From the NCBI GenBank assembly GCA_903936645.1, contig CAIZWI010000306.1:1-63216 (forward strand): 63,216 nt of DNA, given 5' to 3'. Positions 4,474 to 45,352 of the stretch are shown in pieces. The stretch is from an uncultured Verrucomicrobia subdivision 3 bacterium. Lineage in GTDB: Bacteria; Verrucomicrobiota; Verrucomicrobiia; Limisphaerales; UBA11358. The first letter of the stretch is position 1. Each line of letters begins with the position of its first letter. A model generated the notes under the pieces. That model was not told where the DNA came from. It saw only the letters and a list, made by a program, of their open reading frames with translations, and did no database searches. The translations under genes and the position numbers were made by a program.

Positions 4474-5571
<1,098 letters not shown>

Positions 5572-34449: not shown

Positions 34450-34755
34450 TCATTCTTGGTTGGAGCGAAGCTTTGCCTGGATTCGCTGGCGGGCCGCCGG
34501 AGAAAGCTGTTGCGGCACGGTTTTCACCCATTTATCCGGATGGGTCTGGGCGGTGTGGCGAATTAATCTGATTTGCTGCCCATAACGACGGCACCATTTG
34601 CAAAGGAGCACATGCAAGCGCAGCCCCAACCACCGACGGAACGGTAATTTGCGCTCAAGCGCAGCGGATTGCAAGCGGACGGCCGTTTTGCAATTCGGCG
34701 ACAAGTCGAGCAGCCCTTGCAGGAGGGTTTTGGCGATTTGCGTTAACCAATTCAT
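34450..34755 (-). CDS. zinc-binding anti-sigma factor (zf-HC2), paralogue 2
   Basis: 101 aa from the ATG at 34755. It has the ZAS motif HVLLCKWC (H-x3-C-x2-C) plus an upstream Cys (PNCK) and no TM helix. It aligns along its length with the adjacent paralogue. Confidence 0.7.
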   Translation of the reverse strand: MNWLTQIAKTLLQGLLDLSPNCKTAVRLQSAALERKLPFRRWLGLRLHVLLCKWCRRYGQQIRLIRHTAQTHPDKWVKTVPQQLSPAARQRIQAKLRSNQE

Positions 34756-34834
34756 GGTTTGGATCAACCGAGCAACTCCCACAGTGGCGGCAAATGTCCG
34801 GCCTTGCCAGCCACCGCGAGTTGTCCGCGTCAAG

Positions 34835-34865: not shown

Positions 34866-35168
34866 TTAATTACCTTTCACACGCTGCAGGTTTTGGAGGA
34901 TGCGCTTGCGGGCTTCGATGGAAAGGCGGGGGAGCGTTTTGATCTGCTCGTCGGCGTGGCTGGCGGTTTGATGGAGGAAGGTTAATTGCCGTGCATAGCG
35001 GTGGCACCAGGTGCAGATGAGAAAATGCAGGCGCATCCGCAGGCGCGTGGACCAGGGCAAAGGCTGATCCAGCGACCGGGAACTCAGGCGCGACATTTCC
35101 GCACAATTCGGTGTGTGCTGCCAAATCCACACAACGACCTTCATTTTCAATTTGGCCAACGGATTCAT
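34866..35168 (-). CDS. zinc-binding anti-sigma factor (zf-HC2), paralogue 1
   Basis: 100 aa from the ATG at 35168. It has the ZAS motif HFLICTWC plus PNCAE and no TM helix. Its start overlaps the ECF sigma stop by 4 nt (ATGA), the classic sigma/anti-sigma coupling. Confidence 0.75.
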   Translation of the reverse strand: MNPLAKLKMKVVVWIWQHTPNCAEMSRLSSRSLDQPLPWSTRLRMRLHFLICTWCHRYARQLTFLHQTASHADEQIKTLPRLSIEARKRILQNLQRVKGN

Positions 35169-35842
35169 TCGGCGACTCCCGGTTTGCCAAACCAGTTGGT
35201 TTCCAGGCAGCGACGCAGGGCCATGCGCGCCCGGTGAAGCATGACCCAAAGATTGCTTTCGGAGATGTTCAGCAACGCACAAATCTCCTGGCTTGCCACG
35301 CCGTCCACCTCGCGCAGGTTGAAAACGGCGGCCACATTTTTGGGCAGATTATCGGAGCAATCCCGGAAGGTTTGCCAAAAGAGGGCACTATCCAGACTCG
35401 CGCCGGGACTGCCCCAATCCAGCGGGCCAAGCTCGTGTATCCAACCATCCTTGAAAAGGCCGTCGGGCACAAACCGGTCTGCCTCTTCATCGGCATAGAA
35501 TTCCAGGTCGGTAAACGATGTTTCCCGGCTGGACTGGCGGTAATGGTCGTAAATCTTGTTTTTTAAAATCCCCACCAACCAGCTTTTCTCGGCCGCCCGG
35601 CCGGCAAAACTCTTGCCGCCCTTGAGCGCCGCCAGGAAGGTTTCCTGCACGGCGTCCTCCGCCCGGGCCTGGTCGCGCAGGCGCAACATGGCATATTTGA
35701 ATAGGTAATCCCCGTGCAAGTCCACCCACTGCTCCGGATCGGAGAGCTGACCGGTGGCTGGCGGAGCTTCCCCCGGGCGGGCTGCGGGCAGTTGATTGGG
35801 ACGTTCAGTCGGCACCGGGTGATTATCCCAAGCCGGCCCCAA
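35165..35842 (-). CDS. ECF (group IV) RNA polymerase sigma factor with extended region2-region4 linker
   Basis: 225 aa with a TTG start. It has region 2 (DAVQETFLAALKG, SWLVGILKNKIYDHYR) and region 4 (AVFNLREVDGVASQEICALLNISESNLWVMLHRARMALR), separated by a roughly 50-aa insert. Confidence 0.88.
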   Translation of the reverse strand: MGPAWDNHPVPTERPNQLPAARPGEAPPATGQLSDPEQWVDLHGDYLFKYAMLRLRDQARAEDAVQETFLAALKGGKSFAGRAAEKSWLVGILKNKIYDHYRQSSRETSFTDLEFYADEEADRFVPDGLFKDGWIHELGPLDWGSPGASLDSALFWQTFRDCSDNLPKNVAAVFNLREVDGVASQEICALLNISESNLWVMLHRARMALRRCLETNWFGKPGVAE

Positions 35843-36160: not shown

Positions 36161-36751
36161 ATGATTGTTATTATTAGTGGAACCAATCGGACCGGTAGCA
36201 ACACCCGCAAAGTGGCCACGCATGTGGAAAAACCTTACGCCACCCTGGGCGTGCCGGCGCAAATACTCGATCTCGCCCAGTTGCCGCCGGAAATCTATTT
36301 GCCGGCCGCCTATGATAAAACGCCGGCCTCCTTCCAGCCTTTCATCGACCTGCTTCTCTCGGCCGATGGCTTGGTGGTGGTCACGCCCGAATATAATGGG
36401 GGCATTCCCGGGGCGCTGAAGTATTTTATCGACATGTTGCCGTTTCCGGAAAGTTTTGACCAGCGGCCGGTTTGTTTTGTGGGGCTGGCGGCGGGTCTTT
36501 GGGGGGCCATGCGGCCGACGGAACAGTTACAACAGATTTTTGCCTACCGTCACGGGCTGGTTTTTCCTGAACGCGTGTTTCTGCCCGGGGTGAACAACCT
36601 GCTGGACGCCACGGGCCGTTTGCAACCGGTCATGGAACGCAATCTCCTGCAGCAGGCCACGAAGTTCGCGCGGTTTGTGGAAAAGCTCCGGGAGAAACGG
36701 TTCGACCGGGCGACCGCAGCGGCCGAAAGCCAGACTTTGCCCACGACCTGA
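36161..36751 (+). CDS. NAD(P)H-dependent FMN reductase family oxidoreductase (copy 1)
   Basis: 196 aa. MIVIISGTNRTGSNTRKV and VVVTPEYNGGIPGALKYFID are flavodoxin-like FMN_red signatures. Confidence 0.85.
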   Translation: MIVIISGTNRTGSNTRKVATHVEKPYATLGVPAQILDLAQLPPEIYLPAAYDKTPASFQPFIDLLLSADGLVVVTPEYNGGIPGALKYFIDMLPFPESFDQRPVCFVGLAAGLWGAMRPTEQLQQIFAYRHGLVFPERVFLPGVNNLLDATGRLQPVMERNLLQQATKFARFVEKLREKRFDRATAAAESQTLPTT

Positions 36752-36763
36752 AGCCTTCGCCCT

Positions 36764-37306
36764 ATGATTGCTATTATTAGCGGCACCAACCGGCCTGGCA
36801 GCAATACCCGCAAGGTGGTAACCCGGTTGGAGGCCATTTATTCCGCCCTGAGTGTGCCGGTCCAGGTGCTGGATCTGGCACACTTGCCGCCGTCGATTAT
36901 TTTGCCTTCCGTTTATGCGCACAAGCCCGCTGAATTTCAACTGTTCAGCGACACGGTGCGCGCGGCAGAGGGGGTGGTGGTGGTGACACCGGAGTACAAC
37001 GGCAGTTTTCCCGGCATTCTCAAATACTTTATTGACCTGCTGCCGTTCCCGGAAAGTTTTGAGCACCGCCCGGTGTGTCTGGTGGGGCTGGCCGCTGGCA
37101 TGTGGGGCGCCCTGCGCTCGGTGGAGCAATTACAGGCCATCTTTGGCTATCGCAATGCCCATATCTTTCCGGAGCGGGTGTTTATTCCGGGCGTTGCGAA
37201 AATGGTGGATACGGCAGGGCAATTCGCGAATACTGACATGGAACAGCGCTTGGAAAAACAGGCGGCTGGGTTTGTGGATTTTGTAAAAAGACTCAAGGCA
37301 AAATAA
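36764..37306 (+). CDS. NAD(P)H-dependent FMN reductase family oxidoreductase (copy 2, tandem paralogue)
   Basis: 180 aa. It is collinear with copy 1 (MIAIISGTNRPGSNTRKV, VVVTPEYNGSFPGILKYFID) and, by eye, more than half the positions are identical. Confidence 0.85.
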   Translation: MIAIISGTNRPGSNTRKVVTRLEAIYSALSVPVQVLDLAHLPPSIILPSVYAHKPAEFQLFSDTVRAAEGVVVVTPEYNGSFPGILKYFIDLLPFPESFEHRPVCLVGLAAGMWGALRSVEQLQAIFGYRNAHIFPERVFIPGVAKMVDTAGQFANTDMEQRLEKQAAGFVDFVKRLKAK

Positions 37307-37345: not shown

Positions 37346-37915
37346 ATGAAAATGAACTTAACCACCCGCTTCCGCTCCCAAGTCGCGTTATTTTTGGCGA
37401 TTGTCACCCTCAGCGTTAGTTTGCCTGCCGCCGAACCTCCAAAGGTGGGGGCCGCCCTACCGGACTTCACTCTTTACACCATGGATGCGAAGTCTGTGAC
37501 GTTGAGTGCGGAGTACGCCAAACTGCCCGTCGTATTGATCGTGTTACGCGGGTGGCCGGGGTACCAGTGTCCATTTTGCACCAGGCAAGTCCACGCGTTT
37601 GTCGAGCGGGCCAGGGATTTTGCGGGCAAAGCGCGCATTATAATGGTATATCCCGGTCCATCAGCAAATCTGCAAGCGCACGCCGGGGAATTCCTAAAGG
37701 GTAAAGGGTGGTCGGAAGATTTCACGTTCGTCACGGACCCCGATTTTACTTTCACCAAAAGCTACGGTTTGCGGTGGCAGGCACCCGGCGAGACGGCCTA
37801 TCCGTCAACGTTTGTGATTGATACCAAGGGAATCGTGCAGTTCGAAAAAATCACCAAAGGCCACGGTGGCCGCACAACCCCGGAAGAAATCCTGGCCACT
37901 CTGGCCAAGCTCTAA
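37346..37915 (+). CDS. exported peroxiredoxin/redoxin (AhpC-TSA family)
   Basis: 189 aa with a signal peptide (VALFLAIVTLSVSLPAAEP). It has a thioredoxin-fold with the CxxC-type motif GWPGYQCPFCTRQV. Confidence 0.8.
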   Translation: MKMNLTTRFRSQVALFLAIVTLSVSLPAAEPPKVGAALPDFTLYTMDAKSVTLSAEYAKLPVVLIVLRGWPGYQCPFCTRQVHAFVERARDFAGKARIIMVYPGPSANLQAHAGEFLKGKGWSEDFTFVTDPDFTFTKSYGLRWQAPGETAYPSTFVIDTKGIVQFEKITKGHGGRTTPEEILATLAKL

Positions 37916-38166
37916 TGGCCACGGCATTGCTATTGCTCGGCGGTTATGGCCTCTTGGGGCTTTTATTTGCCGTTGCCTTTGCCTTCGTGGGGGTGCAACG
38001 AATCGATCCGCACGCGGTGGGGGCTGGCTGGGGATTTCGCCTGCTCGTCCTTCCCGGCGCGGTCGCGTTTTGGCCCTGGCTGTTGTATCGCTGGCTAAAG
38101 GGGGCGCACACTCCTCCCGTTGAGCGCACGGCTCATCGTGAGGCCGCTCGGAAAGGTTTGCCATGA
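37915..38166 (+). CDS. small two-TM membrane protein, hypothetical
   Basis: 83 aa with two hydrophobic helices. The start shares 1 nt with the upstream stop (TAATG) and the end overlaps the next start (ATGA). Confidence 0.55.
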   Translation: MATALLLLGGYGLLGLLFAVAFAFVGVQRIDPHAVGAGWGFRLLVLPGAVAFWPWLLYRWLKGAHTPPVERTAHREAARKGLP

Positions 38167-38660
38167 TCCTGCCACTGCGCCAGCTCCATCGTCGCGCCAT
38201 CCTGGCCATGGGAATTTTTTTGCCGGTGGCCTTGGCCACCGGCCTCTGGTTGCGTGTGCCAGTGCCCACCATGTCCGGGTTGCCGCCGGGTCTGGGTCAG
38301 GGGCTGGCTCGGCAAGCCACCAACCAGACTGATTGGTGCTGCACGAATCTGTTTCAGAAATTTTCAATAACCGTCCGGCTGTTCCTGGAGCGGACGCCGG
38401 TTCCACGGGCGCTCCTGTCTTTTTCGGCAGACCGTGATTTTCTGCAACCCGATTTGTTGGTTTATTGGCTGCCGGGAAGCCCGGTCGTGATGGATGCATT
38501 GCCGGACAACGCGACCTTATTAGGCGAGTTTCACTCACCAACCTTGCTCCTGCCGACCGAAGCTGCCAGCCGCCCGGGGGTGTTTGTCCTGTACAGTCTG
38601 GCCGATAATAAAATAGTGGATGCCTCCCGCCCGGCCATGGTTGGGGAGCTCAACCCATGA
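38163..38660 (+). CDS. membrane-anchored hypothetical protein
   Basis: 165 aa with one N-terminal TM (AILAMGIFLPVALATGLWL) and a predicted periplasmic domain. It is translationally coupled to its neighbours. Confidence 0.5.
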   Translation: MILPLRQLHRRAILAMGIFLPVALATGLWLRVPVPTMSGLPPGLGQGLARQATNQTDWCCTNLFQKFSITVRLFLERTPVPRALLSFSADRDFLQPDLLVYWLPGSPVVMDALPDNATLLGEFHSPTLLLPTEAASRPGVFVLYSLADNKIVDASRPAMVGELNP

Positions 38661-38674
38661 TCCTTATATAATCC

Positions 38675-39712
38675 ATGTCTCTGCAATACCAGGCGGTCCA
38701 ATGGAACCGGCAAAAACGACTGTATGATGCGGTGCTGATTGGCGGGGTGGCGCTGTACCTTTTGGGCTTTGGCGTGGTGACGGAAAGCCTCTTTCCGAAT
38801 ATTACCGAGGAAATTTTGCTCATGCGGGCGTTTGGCACGGCCGCATTTATTTTGCTGCACATGATTCTGTGCATCGGTCCGCTTTGTCGCCTCAACGCGG
38901 GCTTTCTGCCCATGCTTTATAATCGCCGTCACGCCGGGGTCACGCTGTTTCTACTGGCATTGATTCATGCGGTGATGGTGGTCACCACGTACCACGCGGG
39001 CGGGGATGTGAATCCCCTCGCCAGCATCTGGGCATCCAGTCCGCTCACCCACTCCGTGGCGGGCGTGCCGTTCCAGGTATTCGGCTTTTTGGCGCTGGTG
39101 ATTTTGTTTCTGATGGCGGCGACCAGCCATGATTTTTGGCTGGCCAACTTGAGCGCGCCGGTTTGGAAAGCCCTGCACATGCTGGTGTATGCCGCCTATG
39201 CGCTGCTGGTCTTGCATGTTACCTTTGGTGTGCTGCAAGCGGAAACCAGCCTGGTTTATCCGCTGGCGCTGGCGGCTGGCCTGGTCACGGTGCTGGGGTT
39301 GCACTTTATGGCGGCGCTCAAGGAGGTGCGGGCGGACCGGAACATAAACGCCTGGGATACTGACGGTTGGGTGGAGGCCGGCGCGGTGGCGGATATTCCC
39401 GATAACCGGGCACGGATCGTGTGTGTTTCCGGCGAACGGGTGGCCATTTTTAAATACGCCGGAAAAATCTCGGCTGTCTCCAATGTGTGCCAGCACCAAA
39501 ATGGTCCGCTAGGGGAGGGTAAAATTGTGGCCGGCTGTATTACCTGTCCCTGGCATGGTTATCAGTATTTGCCAGAGACGGGGGCCTCGCCGCCGCCGTT
39601 TGTGGAGCGCGTTCCCACGTTCAATGTCCGGGTGAACAGCGGCCGGGTGTGGGTACACCCCCAACCGAACCCCGCCGGCACCCGGGCGGAACCGGCGGTG
39701 ATTGAACTATGA
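38675..39712 (+). CDS. ferric-reductase-like six-TM (di-heme b) domain fused to a C-terminal Rieske [2Fe-2S] domain
   Basis: 345 aa with six TM helices carrying conserved His (LLHMIL, LIHAVM, ALHMLVYAAYALLVLH). The C-terminal Rieske motifs are CQHQNGPL ... CPWHGYQY. A positive N-terminus and six TMs predict that the Rieske domain is cytoplasmic. Confidence 0.75.
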   Translation: MSLQYQAVQWNRQKRLYDAVLIGGVALYLLGFGVVTESLFPNITEEILLMRAFGTAAFILLHMILCIGPLCRLNAGFLPMLYNRRHAGVTLFLLALIHAVMVVTTYHAGGDVNPLASIWASSPLTHSVAGVPFQVFGFLALVILFLMAATSHDFWLANLSAPVWKALHMLVYAAYALLVLHVTFGVLQAETSLVYPLALAAGLVTVLGLHFMAALKEVRADRNINAWDTDGWVEAGAVADIPDNRARIVCVSGERVAIFKYAGKISAVSNVCQHQNGPLGEGKIVAGCITCPWHGYQYLPETGASPPPFVERVPTFNVRVNSGRVWVHPQPNPAGTRAEPAVIEL

Positions 39713-40476
39713 GTGAGGATTTTTATATTGGGTGGGAAGCCCGGGCGGGAACGGGACCGGCCCGGCGGATGCGCGGGGTGGTGGCGTTGCTGCTGCTGGC
39801 GGGGCTTGGGCTGGCAGTGGCGCTGGCGGCCCAACAACACACCATTGGGACCAGCATTTTTGAGTGGGGCACGCTGAAGCCATTTAGCGGGCGCTTGGAA
39901 CTCGAGCCTTATCCGCATCTGTTAGTGCCGCGACCGGGTGCCACGAACACCCAGCCGGGGTTTTCCACTTATTATCTCGTCGCCCCCTTCAAGCATGGTC
40001 TTGACCGGGAGAAGTTTGCCGCCTTGGCGGGGCAGATGGTGACTTTGCAAGGCACCTTGATTTATCGTGGTGAGCAAACCATGGTTGAAGCCGTGCCAGA
40101 ATCCATCCACACGGTGGTGAGTCCGGCTTCGCTGCCGACCGGCGCGGCGACGGTGAGTCTGGGCCGGCAAACCCTCGTGGGTGAGATTGTGGACAGCAAA
40201 TGTTATTTTGGGGTGATGAATCCCGGTCAACTCCTCCCGCACCGGGCGTGCGCGATCAATTGCATCAGCGGAGGCATTCCGCCTGTCTTGCTAGTGCGCC
40301 AGAAAGATGGCCCGGCCATTTATTTATTGCTGGTTTCCGCCACGGGCAAGCCCGTGAACCAGCAGGTGCTGGACTTGGTGGCGGAACCGGTGGAAATCAC
40401 CGGCGAGGTCGAATGTCAGGACGGACTGCTGATTTTGCGGGCTGATCCGCAGAGCTACCAGCGGGTGGGCCGATGA
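39709..40476 (+). CDS. membrane-anchored hypothetical protein with Cys-containing C-terminal domain
   Basis: 255 aa with one TM (VVALLLLAGLGLAVALAA). It has the Cys cluster SKCYFGVMNPGQLLPHRACAINCISGG. Its start overlaps the Rieske-fusion stop (ATGA). Confidence 0.5.
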   Translation: MSEDFYIGWEARAGTGPARRMRGVVALLLLAGLGLAVALAAQQHTIGTSIFEWGTLKPFSGRLELEPYPHLLVPRPGATNTQPGFSTYYLVAPFKHGLDREKFAALAGQMVTLQGTLIYRGEQTMVEAVPESIHTVVSPASLPTGAATVSLGRQTLVGEIVDSKCYFGVMNPGQLLPHRACAINCISGGIPPVLLVRQKDGPAIYLLLVSATGKPVNQQVLDLVAEPVEITGEVECQDGLLILRADPQSYQRVGR

Positions 40477-40500: not shown

Positions 40501-41433
40501 TTGATTAACCAACCTTTGCACCAAAAACCGCCTGGCCGTTTGCGCCGCCTCCGGTTCCCCCCCTATGCTGGCTGGCTTGTGGGCGTGGTCCTTTTAGGTG
40601 CCCTCATCGCGCTGCCTGCGTTTGCCGGCATGTTTGCGTCATTTGACAATCCAGCCCGGCTCGGGGCCGAGATCCACGTCACCGCCACCAATGGCTTTAC
40701 CCTCCGTTGGGCAGAAAAATCCGCCGCCACGAACGGCCGGCTGAACCTGGTCTTTATCCACGGATCCCCGGGGGGTGCCGGTGCTTGGGCATCTCAATTT
40801 AAGGCCCCCTTTCCGGAGGCCAATCTCTATGCTTACGACCGCCCGGGCTTTGGCCTTTCGAAACCCGTGGGGGACCAGCCGCATTTGCAAGGGCAGGTGG
40901 ACGCTTTGATGGCACTGTTGGCCCGCGCCACCACCAACCGGGTTTTACTGGTGGGGCATAGTTATGGTTCGCCCATTGCCCTGCTGGCCGCCTTGGAGCA
41001 TCCGGACCAAATCGGCGGGGTATTGCTGATCGGGGGGGATGTGGATCCGGCGCAGGAAAAACCGTGGTTTGTTCAGTATGTTTTCGGCTGGCGCGCCACC
41101 TCCTGGCTGCTGCCACGCGCTTTGCGCCAGTGTAACCGGGAGATGCTTTCCGCGCGGGCGGACCTCCGCCAAATGCAAACGCTGTTCGTCCGGCTGGCAG
41201 TCCCGGTGGTGATGTTGCATGGTGACCGCGACCCGCTGGTGCCCGTGGAAAATGTGGCCTGGATGGAGCAACAACTCCGGGCTTTGGGCAAGGCTCATCA
41301 GTTTGCCAAAATCATTCTGCCCGGGGTGAATCATTTCATCCCCTGGGAACACCCCGACCAAGTGGAGCGGGGTATCCGCCTGCTCGTCAATATGAGCGGA
41401 CTGCCCAACCGGCCCTCCGGCACGCTTCCTTAA
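40501..41433 (+). CDS. membrane-anchored alpha/beta hydrolase
   Basis: 310 aa with a TTG start and an N-terminal TM. It has FIHGSPGG, the nucleophile elbow GHSYGS, and distal HGDRDPLVP and NHFIPWEHP. Confidence 0.8.
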   Translation: MINQPLHQKPPGRLRRLRFPPYAGWLVGVVLLGALIALPAFAGMFASFDNPARLGAEIHVTATNGFTLRWAEKSAATNGRLNLVFIHGSPGGAGAWASQFKAPFPEANLYAYDRPGFGLSKPVGDQPHLQGQVDALMALLARATTNRVLLVGHSYGSPIALLAALEHPDQIGGVLLIGGDVDPAQEKPWFVQYVFGWRATSWLLPRALRQCNREMLSARADLRQMQTLFVRLAVPVVMLHGDRDPLVPVENVAWMEQQLRALGKAHQFAKIILPGVNHFIPWEHPDQVERGIRLLVNMSGLPNRPSGTLP

Positions 41434-41495: not shown

Positions 41496-41948
41496 ATGAA
41501 AAAACTATCATTCATTCTCCTGCTATTAGGCCTGGCACTGCCAGTTTTCGCCCAAACCAAAACCCTCCTCAATCTGGACCGTGACGGTCTGGCCATTCAA
41601 GGCTATGACCCCGTGGCGTTTTTTACGGACCAAAAGCCAGTCAAAGGCGACGCCAAGTTTGTGTTCAAGCACGACGGCGCCCTCTACTTTTTTGCGTCCA
41701 AAGAGCACCGGGACTTGTTCAAGGCGAATCCGGCCAAGTATGAACCCGTGTTTGGCGGTTATTGCGCTTATGGCGTCTCCCGCAACAAACTGGTGGAAAT
41801 TGATGTGGATGCCTTTCAAATTGTGGATGGCAAATTATTGCTGCAATACAGCAAATCCATTCGCGAGGATTTTAACAAAGATGCGAAGGCCAATCTGGCC
41901 AAAGCGGATGCCAACTGGCCGGCGCTGGTTGCCAAGAAAGGGAAATAA
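41496..41948 (+). CDS. periplasmic YHS-domain protein (YHS domain-containing (seleno)protein family, Cys form)
   Basis: 150 aa with a signal peptide. It has GYDPVAFFTDQKPVKGD, FASKEHRDLFKANPAKYEPVFGGYCAYGV and ADANWPAL. Confidence 0.8.
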   Translation: MKKLSFILLLLGLALPVFAQTKTLLNLDRDGLAIQGYDPVAFFTDQKPVKGDAKFVFKHDGALYFFASKEHRDLFKANPAKYEPVFGGYCAYGVSRNKLVEIDVDAFQIVDGKLLLQYSKSIREDFNKDAKANLAKADANWPALVAKKGK

Positions 41949-41987: not shown

Positions 41988-42395
41988 ATGGAACACTTCT
42001 CCAAAACCCAAACGATGGTGAGCTGGATATGCCGGCTGACGGCCGCCGTAATTTTATTGCAAACCCTGTTTTTTAAATTTACCGGGGCGCCGGAATCGGT
42101 GTACATTTTTACCAAGGTGGGCATGGAGCCTTGGGGGCGTTACGGTTCAGGGGTGGTGGAGTTGGTGGCGGCCATGCTGCTGCTCGTCCGCTGCAAAGCC
42201 TGGCTGGGGGCCTTGCTCGCGCTCGGCACGATGTGCGGCGCCATTGCATGTCACCTGACAGTTCTCGGTATTAATGTGCAGAATGATGGCGGGTTGCTGT
42301 TTGCCCTGGCTTTGGTGACTTCGGCATGCTGTGTCATCACGCTCTATCTGCATCGGCGGCAGATTCCGTACCTTTCACGTTTAATCAACTCATAA
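41988..42395 (+). CDS. DoxX-family membrane protein
   Basis: 135 aa with four TM helices. It has the typical DoxX N-terminal block (RLTAAVILLQTLFFKFTG...FTKVGMEPWGRYGSGVVELVAAMLLL). Confidence 0.75.
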   Translation: MEHFSKTQTMVSWICRLTAAVILLQTLFFKFTGAPESVYIFTKVGMEPWGRYGSGVVELVAAMLLLVRCKAWLGALLALGTMCGAIACHLTVLGINVQNDGGLLFALALVTSACCVITLYLHRRQIPYLSRLINS

Positions 42396-42399
42396 AGCA

Positions 42400-42948
42400 A
42401 TGAATCCAAACGACGCTGGCACCAACCGGGAATTAATCAATGCGGTCATGGAAACCTTGCGACAGGGCGAATGCCTGCTGGAGGCCATGGATAATGATGC
42501 TTACACCCGCAAGTTGGCCGCCGCCTTTGATGCCTCCATCGGCGGGCATGTGCGCCATTGCCTGGATCATTTTCACACGCTCCTGCAGGCGGTCCCGGCC
42601 GGGGACTTAAATTATGATTATCGCCAGCGAGGGACCGCGGTGGAAACGGATCGCCTGGCCGCGCTGAATGTGACCCGGGATTTAATGGACAGTTATGCGC
42701 AGCTCGATCCGCTGTGCGTTACCCGTTCATTGATGGTGACCTGTAAAACCAGCTATTCCGCCAATGGTTCACAAGCCTCACCCTCCACTGTGGGCCGCGA
42801 GATCATGTATGCGGTGGCCCATGCCGTTCACCATTACGCTTTGATTGGGATCATGGGGGGCATCATGGGCCTGCGCCTGCCGGCCGGATTTGGCATCGCG
42901 CCGTCGACCCTCAAGCACCAGGCCGAAGCGGCGCGAATCGCCGCCTGA
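42400..42948 (+). CDS. DinB-like (four-helix-bundle, His-triad) protein
   Basis: 182 aa. It has His-rich motifs GGHVRHCLDHFHTL and AVAHAVHHYALIG at DinB_2-like spacing. Confidence 0.55.
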   Translation: MNPNDAGTNRELINAVMETLRQGECLLEAMDNDAYTRKLAAAFDASIGGHVRHCLDHFHTLLQAVPAGDLNYDYRQRGTAVETDRLAALNVTRDLMDSYAQLDPLCVTRSLMVTCKTSYSANGSQASPSTVGREIMYAVAHAVHHYALIGIMGGIMGLRLPAGFGIAPSTLKHQAEAARIAA

Positions 42949-42953
42949 GGATC

Positions 42954-44606
42954 ATGACCGAAGCCCTGCCATTGACGACCGAAACGCTGGCCGGATGGCT
43001 GCCGTTCTGGCAGGCCGCCGGATTTTTTTGCGCGACCTTTGTCCTGGAGGATGCGGCGGCGGTGGGAGCTGGTTTGCTGCTGGCCAATGGTTCCATTACC
43101 TGGACCGCTGCTTTCACGGCGTGCTTTTTGGGCATTTGGCTGGGCGATGTCGGCCTCTACGCACTGGCGCGCTTTGCCGGGCGAACGTGGTTTGAAAAGT
43201 CGCGTTTGAAACAGCATGCCGCCAAAGTTGTCCGCAGTGAGGAATGGTTTCGGAAGCGCGGGGCCTGGATCTTAATTTTTAGCCGGGTTTTGCCCGGCGC
43301 ACGGCTGCCCACTTATCTGGCCGCAGGCTTCTTGCGCGTGCCCGCCGCCCCGTTTTTACTCATCACCGCGGCGGCTGCGCTGGTCTGGACGCTGGCCGTT
43401 TTATTTCTGACGCAGATTTTCGGCACGCGGATATTGCATGGGTTCAGCCACTACAAAACGGCCAGCTTTTGGCTGCTGGGCAGCGCGATGGGACTGCTGG
43501 TTGGTTTGCAAATACTGCGCCGGGCGCTGGCTGAATTTGACCGCCGCAAATTCAGCACGCAGGTCGCCCGCTGGACGCGCTGGGAATTTTGGCCCATGTG
43601 GTTGTTCTATCCCCCCGTGGCTTTATATTATCTCTGGCTGGCCCTCAAATATCGCGGGGCCATGCTGCCGACGGCCGCCAATCCCGGAATTTTCTCGGGC
43701 GGCATCGTGGGCGAATCCAAAATGAAGACCTTGCAGGATCTGATGCGCTCAAGCGGCGAGTTCACGGCGGAGGCCGAGTTGCTTGACGGTGATTCTCCGG
43801 AAGCCCGGCTCATTTCATTGCACGAAATTTGTGCGCGGCGAAAGATTTCCTTTCCTTTCATTTTAAAACCGGACCTGGGACAACGCGGCGCGGGGATCAA
43901 ATTAATTCGGAATGAAGCCCAGGCCGCGGCCTATTTGCAGGCAACCCAAGCGCAATTACTGGTGCAGCGGTTTGCCGCTGGTCCGCACGAAGTGGGGATT
44001 TTCTATTATCGTTTTCCCGGGGAAACCCACGGCCGTATTTTTGCCATCACGGAAAAGGTTTTTCCGGTGGTCACCGGCGATGGGAAGGCAACTTTGGCTG
44101 AACTGATCTGGCGGGATGACCGGGCCCGCTTCATGGCGGAAACCTATTTGCAACGTGCGGCTTCACGGCAATACCACGTGCTGGCGGAGGGGGAAACGCA
44201 ACCGCTCGTGCTGGCAGGCAACCACGCCCAAGGCTGTATCTTTCGTGACGGCATGAGACTGAACACACCTGCACTGGAACAGCGCATTGATGAAATCTCC
44301 CAAAAGGTGAGCGGCTTCTACATTGGTCGTTATGACATCCGGTTTGGGAGTGAAGAGGACTTGCGCACGGGCACGCATTTCCAAATTATCGAATTAAATG
44401 GTGCGGCGGCCGAAGCCACCAGCATTTACGATGCGCGCAACACGTTGTGGTCCGCGTATCGCACCTTGTTTCGGCAGTGGGAATTGGTGTTTGCCATCGG
44501 GGCGGCCAACCGGCGGCGCGGCTGTGCGCCCATGACGTTGCGGGCTGGCTGGCGTGCCTGGCGCCATTATGCCGCGCTTGCCGCCACGTATCCGACCGCC
44601 GACTAA
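42954..44606 (+). CDS. DedA/VTT-domain membrane protein fused to a C-terminal ATP-grasp ligase domain
   Basis: 550 aa. Residues 1 to about 170 are DedA/SNARE-associated (LEDAAAVGAGLL...GIWLGDVGLYALARFAG...FSRVLPGARLPTYLAAG), followed by extra TMs. The C-terminal 300 aa are ATP-grasp-like (FPFILKPDLGQRGAGIKLI, LLVQRF, IIELNGAAAE). Confidence 0.7.
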   Translation: MTEALPLTTETLAGWLPFWQAAGFFCATFVLEDAAAVGAGLLLANGSITWTAAFTACFLGIWLGDVGLYALARFAGRTWFEKSRLKQHAAKVVRSEEWFRKRGAWILIFSRVLPGARLPTYLAAGFLRVPAAPFLLITAAAALVWTLAVLFLTQIFGTRILHGFSHYKTASFWLLGSAMGLLVGLQILRRALAEFDRRKFSTQVARWTRWEFWPMWLFYPPVALYYLWLALKYRGAMLPTAANPGIFSGGIVGESKMKTLQDLMRSSGEFTAEAELLDGDSPEARLISLHEICARRKISFPFILKPDLGQRGAGIKLIRNEAQAAAYLQATQAQLLVQRFAAGPHEVGIFYYRFPGETHGRIFAITEKVFPVVTGDGKATLAELIWRDDRARFMAETYLQRAASRQYHVLAEGETQPLVLAGNHAQGCIFRDGMRLNTPALEQRIDEISQKVSGFYIGRYDIRFGSEEDLRTGTHFQIIELNGAAAEATSIYDARNTLWSAYRTLFRQWELVFAIGAANRRRGCAPMTLRAGWRAWRHYAALAATYPTAD

Positions 44607-44620
44607 CCCCCCACCACAGC

Positions 44621-45352
44621 ATGTGCACCGTTACTTTTTCCCCGCGGCGGCGTGGCTATGCACTGGCCATGAATCGTGATGAAAAGCTTTCCCGGGCAAC
44701 CGGTTTGCCACCTATTCGGCATTTAATTCAAGGGCGAAATGTTCTCGCGCCCTGCGAGCCGGGCGGCGGGACCTGGATCTCGGTTAACGACTCGGGAGCC
44801 GCCTTTGCCTTGATTAATTGGTACGCCATCGCCGCCCAGGTGGAAATTAACCCAGTCAGCCGGGGGAAGGTTGTGTTTGCGGTTAGTGCAGTGGCTACCG
44901 GCGAAGGGGCGGCCAACGTTTTGGCCCAAATGCCGCTCCGCTCGGTGAATCCTTTTCGCCTCATCGGTGCTTTTCCGGCGGCCCAGGAAATCCGGGAGTG
45001 GCGTTGGGATTTAAAAAAGTTGGTGCAGGTGGCGCATCCGTGGCGCTTGCAGCAATGGATTTCATCCGGCTTTGACGAAGCCAAGGCCCAACAAATCCGA
45101 GGCGGGTTTTTTGAATCGGCAACGGGGCAAAAAAGCGTTGGCTCACTGGCATGGCTGCGCCGCCTGCACCGTTCCCACGCGCCGGCCGCCGGCCCATTTT
45201 CGACCTGTATGCACCGGGCGGATGCCGCCACGGTAAGCTATTCCGAAGTGCGCGTAACCAGCGATGGTGCAAAGATGAATTATTTAGCCGGTGCGCCCTG
45301 TCAATGCACGAGTGGTGTGATTAACCACGGCGCGTTGATGCGGGCAAGCTGA
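44621..45352 (+). CDS. NRDE-family (TANGO2-like) protein
   Basis: 243 aa from the ATG at 44621. It has the N-terminal nucleophile context MCTVTF and the eponymous AMNRDE motif. It lies 14 nt after the ATP-grasp fusion. Confidence 0.8.
   Translation: MCTVTFSPRRRGYALAMNRDEKLSRATGLPPIRHLIQGRNVLAPCEPGGGTWISVNDSGAAFALINWYAIAAQVEINPVSRGKVVFAVSAVATGEGAANVLAQMPLRSVNPFRLIGAFPAAQEIREWRWDLKKLVQVAHPWRLQQWISSGFDEAKAQQIRGGFFESATGQKSVGSLAWLRRLHRSHAPAAGPFSTCMHRADAATVSYSEVRVTSDGAKMNYLAGAPCQCTSGVINHGALMRAS

Follow-up and report, generated by a model that had tools for sequence, protein, structure and literature searches.

A widespread four-gene cassette built around a ferric reductase–Rieske fusion protein is a candidate bacterial electron-export module

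In a 63,216-nucleotide stretch of DNA from an uncultured Verrucomicrobia subdivision 3 bacterium (GenBank assembly GCA_903936645.1, contig CAIZWI010000306.1; the window hereafter), five tightly spaced genes, p1 to p5, include one (p4) for a protein that joins a six-helix membrane domain of the ferric reductase domain (FRD) superfamily to a C-terminal Rieske [2Fe-2S] domain. Four of the five, p2-p3-p4-p5, recur together in many phyla. This cassette is most likely a widespread, uncharacterised electron-export module of the FRD–Rieske protein and p5, to which, in the genome sampled here, flavin-reductase donors and an exported CxxC redoxin have been added. We think it probable that p2 to p5 are the subunits of one membrane redox complex of the FRD superfamily that exports electrons, analogous to MsrQ or NOX.

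Conservation of a four-gene cassette

The open reading frame (ORF) list of the window gives all five genes on the plus strand with coordinates (Table 1) that agree with those of an earlier, sequence-only reading, in which the region was described as a five-gene operon. Read from the letters, p1 and p2 are joined by TAATG (37913–37917), p2 and p3 by ATGA (38163–38166) and p4 and p5 by a second ATGA (39709–39712), and a 14-nucleotide gap (38661–38674) separates p3 from p4. The ORF list, direct reading and Pfam searches show that the five genes, their overlapping junctions, the fusion within p4 and two FMN reductase genes upstream are all real. Hydropathy profiles gave p1 a signal-peptide-like N-terminus, p2 a hydrophobic hairpin, p3 and p5 one N-terminal anchor each and p4 six hydrophobic segments. 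A scan for promoters and terminators yielded nothing above shuffled background and no convincing terminator within p1–p5, which is neither strong support for operon boundaries nor evidence against them.

Relatives of p4 were sought in GTDB with one genome per species. At least 556 species genomes, belonging to nine or more phyla, have such a gene; carriers are found, among others, in Verrucomicrobiota, Planctomycetota, Acidobacteriota, Gemmatimonadota, Bacteroidota, Cyanobacteria, Nitrospirota, and Alpha- and Gammaproteobacteria, and some, such as Roseibium algae and Pseudotenacibaculum haliotis, are in culture. More than 8000 clusters of proteins at 90% identity match the fusion protein. Two metagenome-assembled genomes titled uncultured Bifidobacterium or Bifidobacteriaceae (L006 and L071) also carry the cassette; these taxonomic labels look doubtful, and L006 additionally has MIP, GMC and glyoxalase neighbours, as in Bacteroidota loci.

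Neighbourhoods were analysed in 83 loci, comprising the best 80 from the GTDB scan and 3 that had been fetched earlier. Neighbours were detected with tblastn and iterative hidden Markov models (HMMs) over six-frame ORFs, and ORFs were clustered with coverage limits, as fusions join p4 and p5. Homologues of p2, p3 and p5 flank those of p4 in 79, 75 and 80 of the 83 loci, respectively, and in many phyla, which excludes adjacency by chance. The order p2-p3-p4-p5 is found on one strand in at least 62 loci, with junctions that mostly overlap or span 20 nucleotides or fewer. Because p2, p3 and p5 are near-constant beside p4 while p1 is rare, we take the conserved cassette to consist of four genes and p1 and the FMN reductases to be accessories. 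Thus, the five genes are coupled in the window, as the operon description had it, but the unit conserved in relatives is p2-p3-p4-p5 only.

The two small subunits had been called membrane DUFs (domains of unknown function). Both are membrane proteins, but neither matches any Pfam family or DUF or any NCBIfam model, and Pfam scans of 38 p2 homologues found nothing consistent. Homologues of p2, directly upstream in 79 loci, are ~70–90 residues long; G15 and W53 never vary in them, and the second helix is conserved (FRLLxLPGxxALWP). The p3 homologues, found between p2 and p4 with the iterative HMM, are conserved only in an N-terminal M-I-x-P-L-R-x-x-H motif, with R6 and H9 invariant, and in the transmembrane (TM) helix. 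The periplasmic tail of p3 varies, and the p3 proteins of Proteobacteria and Phycisphaerae, at ~50–70 residues, lack it; in L084, p3 is called as 51 residues. At the locus of the closest relative, whose p4 is 92% identical (P0002), the gene caller left a gap at 5247–5495 where p2 is expected, and annotation pipelines sometimes miss this small gene.

Cofactor sites, sidedness and the partner protein p5

In Pfam searches, residues 53–179 of p4 matched Ferric_reduct (PF01794) at 48.2 bits, compared to a cut-off of 28, and residues 232–304 matched Rieske at 56 bits, compared to a cut-off of 20. The six hydropathy segments and six long helices in an AlphaFold model agree on six TM helices. Two histidine pairs, H86/H98 on TM3 and H168/H181 on TM5, are 12 and 13 residues apart; the FRD superfamily is marked by two such pairs on these helices with spacings of 12–14, and those of p4 are as would be expected for two bis-His b hemes. 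The predicted cluster ligands lie in the motifs C272-Q-H274 and C291-P-W-H294. All eight residues, four heme histidines and four Rieske ligands, were invariant in an alignment of 24 homologues with 35–77% identity to p4. The best NCBIfam match of the TM domain was MsrQ (NF003831), at 34.6 bits compared to a cut-off of 130, and p4 is best placed, by its predicted features, as an FRD-superfamily member outside the MsrQ and NOX/FRE families.

Positive charges in p4 are found at the N-terminus (R12, K14, R15), in the TM2–3 loop (R72, R84, R85) and after TM6 (K216, R219, R222), and the remaining loops are acidic or neutral. This distribution indicates that both termini are cytoplasmic and that the inner heme site consists of H86 and H168, which lie where TM3 and TM5 meet the cytoplasm, and the outer site of H98 and H181. 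The Rieske domain had been predicted to be cytoplasmic, and this placement is upheld by the positive N-terminus and inside loops, by the lack of a twin-arginine signal in p4 and by natural fusions, described below, in which a seventh TM helix and the p5 domain come, in that order, after the Rieske domain. In terms of sequence and its conservation, the cofactor sites of p4 and their sidedness are shown.

The solved structures closest to the Rieske domain, by sequence (best E 1.8e-15) and by fold (Foldseek; target-normalised TM-score up to 0.82), are CarAc, NDO and BphA3, the soluble ferredoxins of carbazole, naphthalene and biphenyl dioxygenases. The domain has no conserved second cysteine pair, and C288 varies among the 24 aligned sequences. 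Its nearness to the dioxygenase ferredoxins and the lack of that second pair argue that it is of the low-potential type. Foldseek gave meaningful matches with the p4 model for the Rieske domain only; with none for the TM part, p4 has no structural placement among NOX, STEAP and MsrQ.

The partner on the other side of the membrane would be p5. No Pfam or NCBIfam family matches it, and Pfam scans of 44 homologues gave nothing consistent, with DUF5818 appearing weakly in three of the 44. An AlphaFold model built from an alignment of database proteins (pLDDT 86.8) has an anchor helix at residues 15–41 followed by two beta-barrels. The protein had been described as Cys-rich, which does not fit its four cysteines in 255 residues; three of these are invariant and C236 is not conserved. 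Alignments of homologues identified D162, K164, C165, G168, M170, P172, H178, C181, A182 and C185 as invariant, and in the model the resulting Cys3-His(-Met) site lies on a helix-loop-helix (residues 163–169 and 176–187) inserted in the second barrel. The motif K-C-xx-G-x-M-x-P-...-H-xx-C-A-xx-C was seen in 78 of the 83 loci, and in four of the five loci that lack it the contig stops before or inside p5. The fifth, a Chitinophagales locus (L042:3906-5596), has p3 and p4 with no p2 or p5 nearby and is the only complete locus that lacks p5. Two candidate identities for p5 were rejected: superoxide reductase, the sole match of a profile search among PDB sequences, was insignificant (E = 1), and a c-type heme site was dismissed, as there is no CxxCH.

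The closest tie between p4 and p5 comes from gene fusion. A search of 1.84 billion representative proteins returned 258 relatives of p4 at E < 1e-30, and many of the best ones are ~600 residues long. These consist of p4, a seventh TM helix (TM7) and a p5-homologous domain that includes the Cys motif. By a BLAST tally, the p5 domain is present in 48 of the 150 best p4 representatives at 50% clustering, and p4 and p5 are fused in 5 of 78 genomic loci. Such natural fusions, a Rosetta-stone link, show that p5 functions with p4, and their p4–TM7–p5 order fixes the topology independently, with the Rieske domain inside and the p5 domain outside. Fusions of FRD, TM7 and p5 that lack the Rieske domain also exist (database proteins P0379 and P0380). 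The heme–p5 pair may perhaps be the basic unit, with the Rieske domain as an optional entry module.

For the centre in p5, a metal acquired in the periplasm (Cu, Fe or Zn) and a redox-active thiol/disulfide are both live options. Cys, His and Met are typical ligands of Cu(I) or soft metals, and these residues are invariant in p5. One rival reading would make the complex a periplasmic metal reductase, in which Fe(III) or Cu(II) takes electrons from the outer heme, as in FRE and STEAP, and p5, as a soft-metal OB protein with a CusF-like fold and Sco-like ligands, presents or receives the metal. The name and precedent of the FRD superfamily (PMC3591440) fit this reading, as does an exported YHS-domain protein encoded nearby in 13 loci. 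No iron or copper uptake or efflux genes recur in the neighbourhoods, however, and searches by sequence and by fold did not match p5 to CusF, Sco or PCuAC; we judge this reading quite unlikely.

The same invariant site bears on a second alternative, that, in the manner of NOX, the outer heme makes superoxide or H2O2 from O2 in the periplasm, with p5, p2 and p3 as structural or regulatory subunits of a source of bacterial extracellular superoxide. The arrangement of p4, a cytoplasmic electron-input domain followed by two hemes, is that of NOX, most of the carrier groups are known as aerobes, and genes for MIP (aquaporin-family) channels, which are able to pass H2O2, recur in 13 loci. A Cys3-His-Met site that is invariant in an obligatory and often fused periplasmic partner nevertheless argues for a dedicated acceptor over O2, and O2 reduction is very unlikely to be the function.

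Candidate electron donors and acceptors and the probable direction of flow

In the electron-export mechanism that we propose, a cytoplasmic flavoenzyme would reduce the Rieske cluster, a role that in the window would fall to the two NAD(P)H:FMN reductases. Electrons would then pass one at a time from the [2Fe-2S] cluster to the inner b heme and on to the outer b heme, and from there through the metal or thiol centre of p5 to a periplasmic substrate. We infer which way the electrons move, what donates and accepts them and what kind of centre p5 holds. An outward path has the membrane potential in its favour and is the rule in NOX, FRE, STEAP and MsrQ.

The two FMN reductases encoded upstream of p1 are candidate cytoplasmic donors. 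They had been pointed out as neighbours in the sequence-only reading, and such neighbours do recur: the pair is also present in the 92%-identical relative, a single FMN_red gene overlaps the p2 start (stop/start) in L085 with no redoxin gene between, and in the more distant L058 an FMN_red gene lies directly upstream. Elsewhere, the donors would perhaps be Rieske-fused FMN or thiamine pyrophosphate (TPP) enzymes, a short-chain dehydrogenase/reductase (SDR) or a GMC oxidoreductase. Genes for SDR, MIP, GMC oxidoreductase and glyoxalase recur in Bacteroidota loci. Directly upstream of p2 in ~15 loci is a gene for a Rieske–Glu_synthase (FMN) fusion of ~540 residues with the Rieske domain at its N-terminus, and directly upstream in ~14 loci is one for a ~660-residue fusion of an N-terminal Rieske domain and a full TPP enzyme. 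These Rieske-fused enzymes are cytoplasmic, are encoded on the same strand and occur in Proteobacteria, Flavobacteriia and Phycisphaerales (for example, L072:5999-7627 and L079:5432-7417; others are in L030, L035, L052, L054, L078 and L083). The Rieske motif of the TPP enzyme is close to that of p4, and some members of the TPP-enzyme cluster lack it.

These enzymes could also be recipients rather than donors. In an inward or quinone-linked scheme, electrons would pass between the hemes and either the quinone pool or a periplasmic donor, and the Rieske domain of p4 would feed cytoplasmic Rieske-fused enzymes (Rieske–Glu_synthase and Rieske–TPP). Their position immediately upstream on the same strand in ~15 loci, the similarity of the TPP enzyme's Rieske motif to that of p4 and the proposal that MsrQ draws on the respiratory chain (PMC5449189, discussion) are in line with such a scheme. 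Against it, inward-moving electrons would oppose the membrane potential and the step from quinol to a low-potential Rieske cluster would be uphill on general bioenergetic grounds, and the Rieske-fused enzymes are missing from most loci, this window included. We consider inward flow highly improbable.

On the acceptor side, the sequence-only reading had proposed a transmembrane conduit ending in a periplasmic thiol peroxidase, p1, or in the Cys-rich protein, p5. The p1 protein has matches to the Pfam families Redoxin (71 bits) and AhpC-TSA (67 bits) and thus a peroxiredoxin fold. In its alignment with an archaeal peroxiredoxin of known structure, C78 takes the place of the peroxidatic cysteine and C75 that of the catalytic threonine, so that p1 reads P-G-Y-Q-C-P-F-C, which is P-x3-C-x2-C and not the catalytic P-x3-T/S-x2-C. 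The NCBIfam equivalogs for peroxiredoxins and thiol peroxidases scored 17–24 bits on p1, compared to cut-offs of 123–261, and its best NCBIfam matches, a SelL-related redox protein and a deiodinase-related family, were likewise both far below their cut-offs. With no catalytic threonine, a peroxidase role is doubtful, and p1 would be better described as an exported CxxC thiol-disulfide protein of peroxiredoxin fold. It is also rare, being present in 3 of the 83 loci, which belong to one near-identical lineage, and in the closest relative. Only the window, the 92% relative and L001 have the p1 redoxin, which is missing from other Verrucomicrobia at 72–78% p4 identity, including L085 and L086.

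These data bear on the reading that the complex powers p1 as a peroxiredoxin, providing a peroxide-detoxifying alternative to periplasmic peroxidases fed by DsbD/CcdA. The translational coupling of p1 to p2 through TAATG, the signal peptide and fold of p1, and other exported thiol-redox genes near the cassette in close relatives (a second redoxin, DUF1223, a YHS protein and MsrAB) speak for it. The distribution of p1, the replacement of the catalytic threonine of PxxxTxxC by cysteine, the low equivalog scores and the converter that one-electron hemes would need for disulfide reduction speak against it, and we consider it unlikely. Because p1 is rare, it cannot be the general acceptor, nor can thiol-redox service to p1 be the general function. 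With the CPFC redoxin coupled to the cassette and exported thiol proteins encoded nearby, periplasmic thiol-redox clients are plausible in this lineage; under the export mechanism, these clients would be exported thiol-redox proteins, likely p1 and possibly the YHS protein. Thus, the conduit architecture proposed earlier stands, as judged from the FRD–Rieske fusion, its topology, its ligands and its neighbourhood, but the peroxiredoxin endpoint does not, and of the two candidate endpoints p5 is favoured over p1, as gene fusion ties p5 to p4.

Several observations weigh against electron export by p2–p5. We infer the heme and Fe–S content of p4 and the cofactor of p5 from their sequences, and the AlphaFold model of p4 has a pLDDT of 64, from a shallow alignment (at least 74% identity). 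Foldseek with the p5 model against the PDB found no functional match, only generic OB folds (two-OB single-stranded DNA-binding proteins and the anticodon domain of lysyl-tRNA synthetase; best E 1.5e-3). Zn-binding inserts are known in OB folds, for example in RPA70, and the Cys3-His site of p5 could be a structural zinc site or a disulfide staple and not a redox centre. Before the p5 anchor, the twin-arginine position reads RR in 19 of 44 sequences, KR or RK in 10, KK in 8 and neither in 8 (counted by eye; the four classes total 45, which means that one of the counts is wrong by one), and good Tat-like motifs (DRRFLL and similar) were found only in Alphaproteobacteria and Cyanobacteria. With RR in only 19 of 44, a cofactor assembled in the cytoplasm is unlikely to be universal for p5. 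The candidate donors vary by lineage, many loci have none nearby, and no SsuE/ArsH-type FMN reductase is known to us to reduce a Rieske ferredoxin. More tentatively, and at somewhat less than even chances, we propose that p2–p5 are an unrecognised, widespread four-subunit transmembrane reductase in which interchangeable cytoplasmic flavoenzymes would feed a Rieske entry port, p5 would represent a new catalytic family with a tandem OB fold and a Cys3-His-Met redox centre, and the complex would provide bacteria with a third general route, beside DsbD/CcdA and MsrQ, for driving reductive chemistry in the periplasm.

Flanking genes and relation to known systems

Upstream and divergent from the cluster, the window encodes an extracytoplasmic function (ECF)-type sigma factor and two small tandem paralogues with an H-x3-C-x2-C motif, which is of the zinc-binding anti-sigma type; neither small ORF matches Pfam. 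All four close Verrucomicrobial relatives have a divergent ECF sigma factor and small H-x3-C-x2-C proteins upstream, and in L084 genes for a sigma factor and an anti-sigma factor (weak zf-HC2) immediately precede p2-p3-p4-p5 on the same strand. In the export mechanism, the sigma factor would probably turn the cluster on under envelope or oxidative stress. Scans of the window for Rfam families and tRNA genes gave no matches.

Downstream, the genes between 40501 and 45352 follow on the same strand with short gaps and form a recurrent accessory set. The YHS, DoxX, DinB-like and VTT/DedA–ATP-grasp genes are downstream in the window and in all four close relatives, and TANGO2 is present wherever the fetched stretch reaches it (the window, the 92% relative and L086). 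The set accompanies the core in Verrucomicrobiota and Acidobacteriota, where GNAT/acyltransferase, DinB, TANGO2, VTT, YHS and DoxX recur, and scattered members are found in Gemmatimonadota, Planctomycetota and Bacteroidota. In Verrucomicrobiota and Acidobacteriota, the VTT/DedA–ATP-grasp gene adjoins DinB, TANGO2, DoxX, YHS and a GNAT (Acetyltransf_5)/acyltransferase pair, and this group may consist of lipid- or envelope-modification genes that are co-regulated with the cassette. The YHS protein, whose sequence contains GGYCAYG, has counterparts near the cassette in 13 loci. In a Winogradskyella version of the operon (L078:4492-5412), a Fer2 2Fe-2S ferredoxin is fused to an adenylate/guanylate cyclase, which may be a redox-sensing cyclase, beside a Na+/H+ exchanger. 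In L052 and L054 (967-3432), two related alphaproteobacterial loci, a ModABC-like transporter (SBP_bac_11, permease and an ABC ATPase with TOBE) lies upstream, maybe by chance.

Table 1. Features of the cassette and its surroundings (positions in the window; for single ligands, the first base of the codon)
Feature	Position	Strand	Length	Description or basis
Small ORF, paralogue in tandem	34450–34833	−		H-x3-C-x2-C motif read in translation; putative anti-sigma
Small ORF	34866–35282	−		H-x3-C-x2-C motif read in translation; putative anti-sigma
ECF-type sigma factor	35165–35842	−		Sigma70_r2 and r4_2; divergent from cluster; candidate regulator
FMN reductase 1, NAD(P)H-dependent	36161–36751	+		Pfam FMN_red, 112 bits; accessory, lineage-specific
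FMN reductase 2, NAD(P)H-dependent	36764–37306	+		Pfam FMN_red, 105 bits; accessory
p1	37346–37915	+	189 aa	Exported, peroxiredoxin fold, CPFC motif; accessory, lineage-specific
p1 CPFC cysteines	C75, 37568–37570; C78, 37577–37579	+		Alignment to solved peroxiredoxin
p2	37915–38166	+	83 aa	Small, two TM helices; core subunit
p3	38163–38660	+	165 aa	Single TM helix; core subunit
p4	38675–39712	+	345 aa	Six-TM FRD (38831–39211) fused to Rieske [2Fe-2S] (39368–39586)
p4 predicted heme ligands	H86, 38930; H98, 38966; H168, 39176; H181, 39215			
p4 predicted Rieske ligands	C272, 39488; H274, 39494; C291, 39545; H294, 39554			
p5	39709–40476	+	255 aa	N-terminal TM anchor and tandem OB-like domain; core subunit
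p5 motif D162-x-K164-C165-xx-G168-x-M170-x-P172...H178-xx-C181-A182-xx-C185	40192–40275	+		Invariant columns
Alpha/beta hydrolase	40501–41433	+		Pfam/NCBIfam
Exported YHS (seleno)protein-family protein	41496–41948	+		NCBIfam, 146 bits (cut-off 70)
DoxX	41988–42395	+		Pfam/NCBIfam
DinB-like protein	42400–42948	+		Pfam/NCBIfam
VTT/DedA–ATP-grasp fusion (RimK-like ATP-grasp)	42954–44606	+	550 aa	Pfam/NCBIfam
TANGO2	about 44620–45352	+		Pfam/NCBIfam

Among known systems, MsrPQ (YedYZ) is alike in that an FRD-superfamily membrane protein hands electrons derived from the cytoplasm or membrane to a dedicated periplasmic partner, there for envelope repair, in having natural fusions with that partner and in the flavin reductase Fre as a possible donor of MsrQ. 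Juillan-Binard and colleagues reportedly found in 2017 that Fre reduces E. coli MsrQ (a paper cited in PMC5676040). Natural MsrQ–MsrP fusions exist (Sco3746), and the Sec and Tat pathways cooperate in their insertion (PMC5449189). Unlike MsrQ, p4 has a fused Rieske domain, and the cassette has the extra subunits p2 and p3. Pfam found no molybdopterin oxidoreductase domain (MsrP) in any cluster gene; the conserved partner is p5, with a tandem OB-like fold and a Cys3-His site, and not a molybdoenzyme.

NOX and FRE enzymes, including bacterial NOX, resemble p4 in their six TM helices, in having TM3 and TM5 ligate two bis-His hemes and in a cytoplasmic input domain at the C-terminus. In p4, however, that domain is Rieske and not FAD/NADPH, with no Pfam matches to FAD_binding_8 or NAD_binding_6, so a separate reductase is required, and the acceptor seems to be a protein subunit and not O2 or free metal. 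The bc1 and b6f complexes likewise combine a Rieske cluster and two b hemes in one membrane complex, but their Rieske protein is of high potential, is exported by the Tat pathway, sits on the outer face and oxidises quinol, whereas that of p4 is of the low-potential type, fused and cytoplasmic. The proposed role resembles that of DsbD/CcdA, which passes cytoplasmic reducing power to periplasmic thiol-redox proteins. There is no homology: none of p1–p5 matches a DsbD/CcdA membrane domain in Pfam or NCBIfam, and DsbD uses two-electron relays of cysteine pairs with thioredoxin as donor, whereas the cassette would use one-electron Fe–S and heme centres.

A literature search found no functional description of the FRD–Rieske cassette, in agreement with the sequence-only reading, which had not recognised it as a described system. 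The only mention found was in Zhang et al. 2013 (PMC3591440), where one of the bacterial FRD architectures named in a figure legend, 'M4', is listed with Rieske and also with FMN. M4 may correspond to p4 in its domain combination; no partners, operon, topology or function are given for it there.

Carriers of the cassette span soil, freshwater and marine bacteria, and three of its four core proteins belong to no annotated family. The cassette can be tested directly with the natural p4–p5 fusions and in the carriers that are in culture. The bacterial periplasm has no NAD(P)H or ATP, and reductive repair and detoxification there rely on a few known conduits, mainly DsbD/CcdA, MsrQ and branches of the respiratory chain. 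If p2–p5 are a true exporter, p5 would define a new periplasmic redox enzyme, and the cassette would account for a large block of 'hypothetical' genes beside stress-response genes and would be a candidate for activities that still lack an enzyme, such as periplasmic thiol or metal reduction and extracellular superoxide production.

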